The notes under the pieces: model-generated
What the model saw: only the letters and a program-made list of their open reading frames with translations
What the model was told of the DNA's origin: nothing
Databases searched by the model: none
In this document: positions 38,205 through 41,525 of the stretch, piece after piece
How positions within the stretch are numbered: position 1 is the stretch's first letter
Layout of the letters: the number at the start of each line of letters is the position of its first letter
From: Promethearchaeia archaeon
GTDB taxonomy: Archaea; Asgardarchaeota; Lokiarchaeia; Sigyniarchaeales; SOKP01
Reading direction: 5' to 3'
Length of the DNA stretch: 64,000 nucleotides
Assembly: GCA_029856105.1 (NCBI GenBank)
Contig: JAHQWH010000193.1
Coordinates: 50,449-114,448 of the forward strand
Position numbers and translations under genes: made by a program

Positions 38205-40169
38205 ATGGTAGAAACTAAAATTACAAATGATGAACCAAGAATCTTCGTGGCAGTATGCCAATGAGGTATTAATATTGCCGAAATAATCGATACAAAAGCT
38301 CTATCAGAATATTCAAAAACGCTTCCAAATGTAGTTGAAGCTTTAGATTACATTTCAATGTGCACACAAGGCGGAGCCGAATTCATTAAAGAAAAAATGA
38401 TCGAGAGCAACGCTAATAGGTTAGTTATGGCATCTTGCACCCCAATAACTCACGAACCTGTTTTTAAAAGCGTACTAGAATCTATGGGTTTGGACCCTTC
38501 TTACTTGGAATTCGTGAACATACGAGAACACTCGAGTTTTGTCCATAGACAAGATAAAATAGGGGCACAAAGAACCGCTGAGGATCTTATTCGGTCTGGT
38601 GTTGCTAGGGCTAGTGTTTTAGAAAAAATTCTAATCAAAGAGGTAGATATCACTAAAAAGGCCTTAATTATTGGTGGTGGCGTGGCAGGACTAACAGCAG
38701 GAATAGATTTGGCCGAAGAAGGTTTTGAAGTCCATTTGGTTGAGAAAAATCCGACAACTGGAGGAAAAATGGCTATGTTAGATCGAACATTTCCCACTGA
38801 CGATTGTAGTATATGAATTCTTGGCCCTGTTATGCTCGAAGCGGCAAGAACTCCAGGGTTAATTGTATATACTTATAGTGACGTGGAAGATGTTTCTGGA
38901 TTTGTTGGAAACTTTAATGTTAAAATCCGCAAAAGGGCAAGGTACGTTAATAACGACTGCAATGGTTGCGGTGCTTGCTTTGATGTGTGTCCCGCTTACG
39001 GATACGATGAATTTAACGAAGGAATGAACCCGAGAAAAGCAATTTACGTTTCCTTTGCTCAAGCAGTACCCTCGATGGCTCAAATTGATATGACGAGATG
39101 CATTAAATGTGAATTGTGTAAAGGTGTCTGTGAAGTTAAAGCAATTGATTTTGATCAAGAAGATGAAATTGTAGACGTTAAAGTTGGCTCAATAATAGTA
39201 GCTACAGGATGGGACGAGTACGAACCAGAAACGGGTTATTTAGGATACGATGTTTATCCAAATGTAATAACCCAAATGAAGTTAGAAAGGATTCTTGCAC
39301 CTAACGGACCAACTCTTGGGCATCTAGTTCGCCCTTCTGACGGAAAAAAACCTGAAAAAATACTATTTATTCAATGTGTAGGGTCGAGAGATTTAAACAT
39401 GAATACTTATTGCAGTGGCGGAGTATGTTGTATGGTTTCAATTAAAAATTCTAAACTTATAAAACAACATTATCCTGAAATAGAAATCTCTGTTGCCTAC
39501 ATGGATATTCGAGCCGCTGGAAAAGATTACGAAGAGTATTACACCGCATCTCGAAAAGAAGGTATTAGATATATTAGAACTAATGTCTCAAAAATTCAAG
39601 AAGACCTTGAAACTCAAAATCTTAAAATAATTATCCAAAACACACTTAGCAGTACAAGATTAAAAGAACTTGAGTACGATATGGTGGTTCTATCGTGCGC
39701 TATGGTACCCGCAAAGGGAGTAGAAAAAATTGGAAGAATCTTAAAGCTTGAAACGAGCCAAGATGGATTTTTCAAGGAATTCCATTCTCGATTAAATCCA
39801 ATTGACACCAAAATTCCGGGTATCGTACTTGCAGGAGCTTCTCAAAGCCCCAAATCTGTAGCTGAATCAATAGCTCAAGGAAGGGCAGCAGCATCTTCTT
39901 TAGCACGATTGATGTGGAAGGATAAGTATAGGATTTTATTAATTCGAGCTACTGTAGACAAAGATAGATGTGCGAAGTGTGGGCTGTGTGAATTAAATTG
40001 TCCTTACGATGCAATTAAGACTTTAGCTGATGGAGCAGAAGTAAACGAGATATTGTGCCGTGGATGCGGTTCGTGCTTAGCCAATTGTCCTTCTGAGGCG
40101 ATTACGCTAAGATACTACCGTGAACCTCAATATGAAAAACAAATCGATGCTATTTTAGAAGAGATATAG
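38205..40169 (+). CDS. hdrA: Heterodisulfide reductase subunit A, selenoprotein (Sec20 and Sec204), 654 aa
   Basis: One frame from ATG 38205 through TGA 38262-38264 (EPRIFVAVCQUGINIA, cf. HdrA VCHCG) and TGA 38814-38816 (DRTFPTDDCSIUILGP) to TAG. Contains GGGVAG, QCVGSRD, YCSGGVCC and ferredoxin motifs. It joins track ORFs 38358-38816 and 38832-40169. Confidence 0.95.
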
Positions 40170-40182
40170 AGAGGTGTAAAAA

Positions 40183-40668
40183 GTGGCGACAATAGATAAA
40201 GACCAAATAAAGATCTTAGCATTTATGTGCTGGAAATGAGGTTATGGTGCTGGAGATATGGCGGGTACGATACGCGCTCAATACCCTTCTACGATTAGAC
40301 CTATAAGAATCAACTGTACTGGACGCGTAACGCCTTCACTTATGATGCGCGCGATTGGAAAGGGTGCCGATGGAGTAATTGTTGCTGGATGATACGAAGG
40401 AGAATGCGATTATGAAACCGGTAATTTGGTAGCAGCAAAAAACGTGAAGTATACGAGAGAAATTTTAAAAACCACGGGTGTTTCCCCTGATAGAATCCAA
40501 ATGTTCCATTGTAGCGCAGCTGAAGGTCAACGATTTCAAGAAGAAGTCACCAGAATCTCAGAAATAATCGAAAATTTAGGCAGCAATCCAATTAAAGAAT
40601 CTCTGCGTTCCGAAAAGAACAAAAAAGATTCAAAAAAAGAACAAAAAAAAATTAAACCGAAGGAATGA
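40183..40668 (+). CDS. mvhD: F420-non-reducing hydrogenase delta subunit MvhD/VhuD, selenoprotein (Sec19 and Sec70), 161 aa
   Basis: GTG at 40183 follows SD GAGGTG. Translation KILAFMCWKUGYGAGDMAG..QYP..INCTGRV..GADGVIVAGUYEGECDYETGN has TGA at 40237-40239 and 40390-40392, both at Cys-equivalent positions. Confidence 0.95.
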
Positions 40669-40722
40669 CTCTTGCGAGAAAATATTAGTCGCAAGACGAC
40701 GAACCATTAGCTATGGTTTCGG
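40657..40722 (+). promoter_or_regulatory. Eukaryote-like SECIS element
   Basis: AUGAC (40665-40669), 8-bp stem UCUUGCGA/UCGCAAGA, loop GAAAAUAUUAG and 3' CGAC giving tandem GA/AG pairs. Basal CCGA/UCGG pairing with a side hairpin AACCAU/AUGGUU. Confidence 0.85.
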
Positions 40723-40904
40723 AAATTATTATTTCTATAATAATTTTTATTATTTATTCTAAATTAACGTAATTTGAAGTTTAAAACTATTAAACTTCTA
40801 CTTAGTAAGATAAAGTATAAAAACTCATCTTTCTAGATAAACTATAATTTCAATTTTGTTTGAAATTAAAAAAATAAATGTTAAAAACAAATAAGTGAAA
40901 AAAT

Positions 40905-41525
40905 ATGGGAGAAACTTCTAAAGTAGGAATCTCAGCATCTAAAGTTGTAGCTCTTATTGGTGCGTTAGTCGTTATTCAAGTATGTATAGGATATTTTGCA
41001 ACATTAGATGCATTGAATATATTATATGGCATAATAGGACTAATATTTGCGGCTGTAATCTTCATATCATTAGAAATCGTGGATTTAAAGAAAGTGAAAA
41101 TACCTTATTTATGGTGGGTATTGTTAATCATCGGGATTCTCTTAATATTATTTGAATTTGCTGTTGGACCCTCATATCTTGGAGGTATTTTAGTTTTAAT
41201 AGCAGCATTACTAGAATTTTTAAGTCAGAAGAAAACTTATGCGGAATCCAAAATTGTTGCTTTAATTGGAGCATGTTATCTAATATATGAATCCGTAATG
41301 CCACTTCTTTCTGTTTCACCTGCACCTACAAGTATAGCCCTTTCTATTGTTGGATTCGTTTTTGCAATAATATTAATTTTAACATTGCAAGATAAAATAG
41401 ATGTAAAAATACCTTATGCATGGTGGACAATTCTCATAATTGGCTTTGTAGTATTTACATGGGTGACGACAGTTAGCGGAACGGTCATAATGGTAGCCTT
41501 TATCCTTATCCTGATGGCTTTTTAA
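40905..41525 (+). CDS. Hypothetical membrane protein with internal duplication
   Basis: Two repeats: SKVVALIGA..VKIPYLWWVLLIIG and SKIVALIGA..VKIPYAWWTILIIG. Confidence 0.8.
   Translation: MGETSKVGISASKVVALIGALVVIQVCIGYFATLDALNILYGIIGLIFAAVIFISLEIVDLKKVKIPYLWWVLLIIGILLILFEFAVGPSYLGGILVLIAALLEFLSQKKTYAESKIVALIGACYLIYESVMPLLSVSPAPTSIALSIVGFVFAIILILTLQDKIDVKIPYAWWTILIIGFVVFTWVTTVSGTVIMVAFILILMAF

Follow-up and report, generated by a model that had tools for sequence, protein, structure and literature searches.

A lokiSECIS element with a predicted three-way-junction fold behind the hdrA-vhuD gene pair of a Promethearchaeia archaeon, and its labile overlap with the vhuD stop codon

The stretch of Promethearchaeia archaeon DNA analysed here (64,000 nucleotides; "the window") encodes on its forward strand a gene pair, hdrA and vhuD, that is followed by a structured RNA element. 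The hdrA product carries 4Fe-4S and FAD/NAD-binding domains (Pfam), and the product of vhuD, also named mvhD, is an FlpD protein (PF02662, E = 2.4e-42). Translation with TGA read as selenocysteine (Sec, U) gives each gene two in-frame Sec codons, and a gap of 13 nt separates the terminal TAG of hdrA from the start of vhuD. The features of the locus are:

38205-40169, + strand: hdrA, with Sec codons TGA 38262-38264 and 38814-38816 and a terminal TAG (translation with TGA = U)
40183-40668, + strand: vhuD/mvhD (FlpD family), GTG start, 161 codons, stop TGA 40666-40668 (translation)
40609-40665, + strand: A-rich, Lys-rich C-terminal tail of vhuD (SEKNKKDSKKEQKKIKPKE), including an A9 run at 40643-40651
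40657-40660, + strand: 5' strand of the basal helix, CCGA, pairing with 40719-40722
40663-40668, + strand: bulged strand of the kink-turn, GAAUGA, whose U40666-G40667-A40668 is also the vhuD stop
40669-40697, + strand: upper stem of 9 positions with the apical loop
40698-40700, + strand: non-bulged strand of the kink-turn, G40698, A40699 and C40700 (-1n)
40702-40718, + strand: side hairpin (third arm), AACCAU/AUGGUU with loop UAGCU, stem 40702-07/40713-18 (RNAfold)
40719-40722, + strand: 3' strand of the basal helix, UCGG, abutting the side hairpin with zero linker
40744-40748, + strand: T5 run in an AT-rich tract, about 22 nt past the SECIS (sequence only)

Both Sec codons of vhuD, TGA 40237-40239 (codon 19) and TGA 40390-40392 (codon 70), are kept in 29 same-genus orthologs and align with Sec/Cys columns of the paralogues. 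A scan of genome contigs with DNA patterns from the VhuD alignment, in which Sec columns were read as Cys, returned only 4 Cys-type Borrarchaeota/Promethearchaeota loci; Sec-vhuD relatives were therefore gathered by protein match rather than by such patterns. The source genome encodes SepSecS. No tRNA-Sec was found above the Rfam cut-off (RF01852, sub-threshold matches only) in this 92%-complete MAG, and at that completeness the missing match says nothing about absence; few tRNAs were found by aragorn across the whole MAG. One of the sub-threshold RF01852 matches is a tRNA-Leu(UAG) and was rejected as tRNA-Sec, and a better-scoring one lies at C50:1158-1230 (37.8 bits, 73 nt).

The last four codons of vhuD, KPKE, form the 5' half of the SECIS base, and the next ORF after the element begins at 40905. 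The T5 run between them is a possible candidate for an archaeal transcription stop. Metatranscriptome (RNA-library) contigs over vhuD reach only 40584, and none runs across the tail or the SECIS.

Folding of 40650-40730 with RNAfold predicted a three-way junction (-18.5 kcal/mol, z = -2.86; 2 of 200 shuffles folded equally well) that reproduces exactly the one drawn in the original prediction, in which a CCGA/UCGG helix is combined with an AACCAU/AUGGUU hairpin. At the level of sequence, the centre of this junction has the layout of a kink-turn, with a C helix, a 3-nt bulge and tandem G.A/A.G pairs running into an NC helix. G40663 (-1b) and C40700 (-1n) make up the closing pair, A40664-A40665-U40666 the bulge, and G40667 with A40699 and A40668 with G40698 the sheared pairs of the core. 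The upper stem begins with a non-Watson-Crick position (C40669/C40697), continues with 8 bp (40670-77/40689-96) and is capped by an apical loop of 11 nt, GAAAAUAUUAG (40678-40688), which begins with GAAAA and ends with AG. A covariance model of the whole junction scored the element at 82.6 bits (E ~1e-20). No SECIS of its own was found for hdrA, the element being the single match of covariance model R2 in the whole 64-kb window.

This arrangement is that of the published lokiSECIS (PMC4989117; PMC11227280). As there, one element right after vhuD serves both genes of an hdrA-vhuD pair, consistent with the one R2 match in the window, and the gene immediately 5' of the site is a selenoprotein gene with UGAs that align with Cys. 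The element shares with lokiSECIS the AUGA core 5' of the stem (ATGA 40665-68) and the GA 3' of it (40698-99), the stem of 9 positions, the 11-nt loop with leading adenines and a terminal AG, and the overlap with coding sequence. The motif AUGA...GA (or AA) around the stem was located by pattern in 28 of the 29 same-genus orthologs, and the 29th has it too, with a 13-nt loop. The SECIS families of Rfam 15 gave no match at gathering score in the window and none at E <= 10 in 40400-40900; weak Rfam matches to RefA9, PrrF and mir-890 were set aside as chance. The element at 40657-40722 is an ordinary member of the published lokiSECIS family (Asgard type I, eSECIS-like). Judged solely by its position and its resemblance to the family, it is most likely the signal by which all four UGAs (38262, 38814, 40237 and 40390) are read as Sec.

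Eukaryotic elements of the kink-turn type have the same AUGA...GA non-Watson-Crick core, apical-loop adenines and a lower helix under the core, but here the upper stem is shorter, a hairpin replaces the 3' side of the "internal loop", and the element abuts or overlaps the ORF whereas eukaryotic elements lie far off in the 3' UTR. SBP2 has no known archaeal counterpart (PMC4989117). The euryarchaeal SECIS of Methanococcales/Methanopyrus vhuD (PMC4989117) likewise stands 3' of vhuD, serves two Sec codons and has AUGA and GAC sides; it contains a GAA_A bulge, an extra stem and a GC-rich upper stem, whereas the upper helix here is continuous, A/U-rich and 8 bp long. Sequence reading and the fold accordingly gave no Methanococcus-type architecture (two stems, GAA_A bulge, GC-rich upper stem) for this element.

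Relative to the lokiSECIS model as presented in the main texts, two parts of the structure are additional: the lower part, which here consists of a covarying basal helix and a side hairpin with a G-C loop, and the conserved G-C pair that closes the 3-nt bulge. The original prediction had taken the side hairpin for an extra of this particular SECIS, and here the comparison points the other way. When the Loki-type elements of the source genome (about ten, from a pattern scan) were each folded, the same three-way architecture with a side hairpin was found in 10/10 non-SPS-type SECIS. The stems of these hairpins differ from one element to another: AACCAU/AUGGUU, ACCUU/AAGGU, AACCC/GGGUU, ACCCC/GGGGU, UUACCC/GGGUAA, AAACC/GGUUU, AACUU/GAGUU and AUGG/CCAU. 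Seven of the ten elements follow genes for VhuD (four), VhuU or Prx-like proteins, and three follow small ORFs with an in-frame UGA, one of these three (C19:120158) having no clear upstream gene. A covariance model of the full junction recovered 9 elements from this genome (E <= 5e-9). An ORF with an in-frame UGA directly precedes eight of these, and for the ninth (C19:120158) the search upstream gave no credible ORF. The same model has matches in 25/25 genomes sampled from the same family and in 39/151 sampled from the phylum.

To these we added 20 Sec-vhuD 3' regions from other genera, families and classes, chosen by protein match alone, which avoids picking elements by their structure. All 19 that could be assessed contain the core, the side hairpin and the basal helix (11 by the covariance model, 8 by RNAfold). 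Compensatory changes were then counted over 45 distinct diverse elements, in an alignment that was fitted by a hairpin-containing model with which some members had been found, so that the pair counts lean towards the structure: such changes occur in 6/6 pairs of the side hairpin (90% of cells paired), in 4/4 pairs of the basal helix (98% of cells paired) and in 9/9 pairs of the upper stem, and the structure as a whole is 93% paired as compared to 34-48% when the partners are slid. In a MAFFT alignment of the paralogous SECIS, the hairpin and the basal helix did not line up in register, and this alignment was therefore left out of the counting. Among same-genus orthologs, 6/9 pairs of the upper stem show compensatory changes; the side hairpin is conserved in sequence at this range, with wobble changes only and double changes in 0/6 pairs. 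Because of this conservation and the lack of double changes within the genus, the side hairpin may have a sequence-specific rather than a structural role.

The same 45 elements define the details of the junction. The hexamer GAAUGA is present in 34/45; the -1b/-1n pair is G-C in 43/45 and paired in all 45; and the position adjoining the G.A pairs is non-Watson-Crick in 25/45. On the 3' side, the core dinucleotide is GA in 33 and AA in 12 elements, with C next in 43/45. The side hairpin starts 1-2 nt after the -1n C, the linker to the basal 3' strand measures 0-1 nt in 38/45, and the hairpin loop contains GC in 41/45 and G-pyrimidine in 44/45.

These results establish the side hairpin as a real, covarying, family-wide module of Asgard SECIS elements. 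In the main texts of Mariotti 2016 (PMC4989117), Huang 2024 (PMC11227280), Sun 2021 and a 2026 review, the models comprise only the core, the upper stem and the apical loop, with no mention of a side hairpin or a three-way junction, and a full-text literature search on SECIS three-way junctions (main texts) returned no relevant match. The third arm is a refinement for the whole family and not a peculiarity of this locus.

In secondary-structure topology, the module resembles the k-junction, the name given by Lilley's group (PMC10573300) to a kink-turn with tandem G.A pairs and a third helix opposite the bulge, on the non-bulged strand (Wang et al. 2014, PMC4005666; Li et al. 2023, PMC10573300). 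Unlike a k-junction, the element here has one G-C pair (-1b/-1n) before its third helix, and it has no bulge between G1b and A2b such as the TPP riboswitch examples have; the likeness, being one of topology only, would be a resemblance rather than membership.

Could the side hairpin instead be a separate 3'-UTR element, such as a transcript-end or stability hairpin or the site of an unrelated protein, that happens to adjoin the SECIS? Its place on the 3' side, ahead of an AT-rich tract that holds a T5 run, would suit such a role, published SECIS models do without it, and k-junctions showed no response to L7Ae (PMC10573300), so that the third arm is unneeded for binding of the classical kink-turn protein. 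We nevertheless regard this as improbable: the hairpin is enclosed by the covarying basal helix, it is held in most elements at a fixed spacing from the kink-turn (1-2 nt) and from the basal strand (0-1 nt), and it accompanies the SECIS of VhuD, VhuU, Prx-like and small-ORF genes regardless of what lies downstream.

Several elements depart from the common form. A GUGA-core element at C10:35867-35900 (L015:1568-1601) has a plain 7-bp lower stem (UGAGGGG/CCCCUCA) without a side hairpin, and probably represents the separate SPS/selD type known from the literature. Variant cores were seen behind two-Sec vhuD genes, namely AGGA in L054 (G058:C59, same class, ~393-472) and UUGA in L062 (G060:C5, ~415-494); both elements retain the G.A dinucleotides, the side hairpin and the basal helix. 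The vhuD SECIS of L058-L060 and L063-L066 (family f2 and relatives) have U instead of C after the 3' GA and a side hairpin of the AUCC/GGAU type, flanked by GAUGA...GAUGA-like repeats and with longer linkers, and model R2 fails to detect them.

Three small ORFs of the source genome, each with an in-frame UGA, lie at C122:1111-1320(+) (L013), C190:1701-1820(-) (L014) and C48:29630-29845(-) (L011). They encode about 70 aa (C122), about 72 aa (C48) and a 40-codon C-terminal stretch on a short contig (C190); the first two begin with an N-terminal hydrophobic helix. In all three the UGA is set within a G-G-U-C/UCC motif, and a three-way-junction SECIS follows 7-28 nt after the ORF (R2 E 1e-15 to 1e-17). 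None of the three has a Pfam family. Public gene calls of small candidate selenoproteins stop at the UGA (four found, 48 aa each), and the query used gave no match to the small candidates in 40 other genomes of the family. These ORFs may form an undescribed family of small membrane selenoproteins, or may be strain-specific. Another strong three-way-junction SECIS (C19:120096-120177(-), L009; R2 E 1e-13) has no convincing selenoprotein ORF found upstream.

We now turn to the triplet that vhuD and its SECIS have in common. As the original prediction stated, the reading frame runs through the Lys-rich tail into the SECIS, and its stop TGA (40666-40668) sits within ATGA 40665-40668 of the core; read-through of this stop would add ULLRENISRKTTNH, up to a TAG (40708-40710). 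Sequence and translation bear out each of these points, and the TAG falls in the side-hairpin loop; in the source genome one triplet is indeed both terminator and SECIS core element. The prediction's further idea, that the overlap could couple termination to Sec insertion upstream, fares differently when the 3' ends of vhuD are compared. Stop and core were located in the 29 same-genus orthologs (protein match), giving 30 cases with the window; relative to the core, the stops are distributed as follows:

Offset 0 (the core UGA): 11/30 orthologs, the window counted
Offset -13 (TAA in AUUAAACCG): 10/30 orthologs
Offset -4 (first UGA of a duplicated GAAUGAAUGA): 3/30 orthologs
Offset -14: 3/30 orthologs
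Offsets -6, -16 and -19: 1/30 orthologs each

The core-UGA stop is thus not conserved in the genus. The reading frame of the tail varies among the orthologs, with all three frames occurring among the 30, and a core-UGA stop in 11/30 is about the one third expected under an arbitrary tail frame, though relatives are not independent samples. A maximum-likelihood tree built from the 3' part of hdrA and vhuD (1296 columns) requires no fewer than 6 gains or losses of the core-UGA stop. The window pairs with L021 (SH-aLRT 98), a sister genome whose protein is 96% identical, and the pair is nested in a clade of 7, in which the stop of the remaining five is at -13. In place of the window's A9, these five relatives (94-95% identity) read A4GA5 (10 nt), so that the core-UGA stop of the window's lineage can be traced to a recent 1-nt length change in the A run. 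L021 has A12 at this place, which is the frame of the window plus one Lys, and more distant orthologs likewise end in ...IKPKE-UGA.

In a broader set of 46 diverse SECIS, the stop falls on the core UGA in about 15, VhuU genes included. Its distance from the core is at most about 28 nt in 45 of them, the remaining one being at -82. In 8 of the 46 (e.g. L072, L076, L005) a UAG stop is found 5 nt before the core UGA; the G of these UAG codons is the closing G of the kink-turn (-1b), which makes them a second recurrent stop built into the SECIS. It could be that the proximity of the stop to the SECIS is itself selected, even if the exact triplet is not.

The overlap is already published in kind: VhuU.1 has been reported to end at the core UGA of its SECIS (Mariotti 2016, PMC4989117), and stop codon and SECIS were said to "often overlap" (Huang, Xiao & Zhang 2024, PMC11227280). 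We read it as real, evolutionarily labile and incidental, a by-product of an ORF that enters its SECIS and not a coupling device.

The idea that the shared triplet is a selected dual-function device, in which termination unfolds the SECIS and so couples or meters Sec insertion upstream, has in its favour that the core-UGA overlap recurs (11/30 orthologs, about 15/46 diverse elements) and that, with stops within about 28 nt of the core in 45/46, terminating ribosomes almost always invade the SECIS. It is very unlikely all the same, given a core-UGA frequency of about one third, as for an arbitrary frame, at least 6 gains or losses of this stop in one genus, and nearest relatives that stop at -13 after a 1-nt indel. 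Every frame is in use, and since any stop within about 15 nt would equally melt the base of the SECIS, the exact triplet adds no specific coupling. Of the original prediction on this point, the part in which the terminating ribosome unfolds the SECIS and thereby keeps the UGA from being recoded is reasonable and already published; the coupling to upstream Sec insertion is not upheld.

That the overlap is an assembly error in the A9 homopolymer, with the true vhuD end ...EQKKN at the TAA 13 nt upstream, would agree with the A4GA5 and -13 stop of 5/6 closest orthologs (94-95% identity), but can be dismissed since Logan contigs from runs of three studies (depths 24, 25 and 9) show no difference or gap over 40300-40900, the listed indels (40620-40633, in short contigs) fall outside the A9 run, and L021 with its A12, as well as the distant orthologs, keep the frame of the window.

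An incidental origin of the overlap can be pictured as follows. From a tail that is A-rich, Lys-rich and free of constraint, the vhuD ORF would pass into the 5' half of the SECIS RNA, and whichever frame the tail takes would be closed by a stop in or next to the conserved SECIS, be it the UAA in AUUAAACCG, the UGA in GAAUGAAUGA or the core UGA; in the source genome, the frame is the one that ends at the core UGA. Given its footprint and helicase geometry, a ribosome at any such stop has to open the SECIS at least at its base. One with the core UGA in its A site would already have opened the basal helix and the kink-turn and freed the upper stem's 5' strand, and because of this the core UGA would terminate translation rather than be recoded. 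That a UGA this near to a SECIS is not recodable, as the ribosome must melt the element to reach it, was proposed by Mariotti 2016 (PMC4989117).

The third arm, a small hairpin on the non-bulged strand right after the kink-turn and presumably stacked against the basal helix, would, we infer, fix the kink-turn geometry and/or, through its G-C loop, contact the archaeal recognition partner. One may speculate further that the third arm, with its near-invariant G-C (G-pyrimidine) loop and k-junction-like base, is the docking site for an Asgard SECIS-recognition partner (a protein, the ribosome or an EFSec/SelB extension), that this arm disappeared or gave way to something else when the SBP2-dependent eukaryotic SECIS arose, and that a stop inside the junction, as nearly all of the elements have it, is a selected reset for each round of translation; we offer this as a tentative idea that is rather unlikely to hold in full.

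Taken jointly, a single lokiSECIS for the hdrA-vhuD operon, a three-armed, k-junction-like fold and an incidental stop overlap form the explanation in which we have good confidence. The lokiSECIS belongs to an RNA family that forms a link between selenocysteine decoding in archaea and in eukaryotes. The notion of a stop codon that doubles as SECIS core by design fails, as this arrangement comes and goes within a genus through single-base changes in the A-rich tail. As given in their main texts, the published core-plus-stem SECIS models appear incomplete, the conserved unit being a three-way junction made of a textbook kink-turn and a third arm. This unit matters for SECIS search tools, for the origin of the eukaryotic SECIS and for the hunt for an archaeal SECIS-binding factor.
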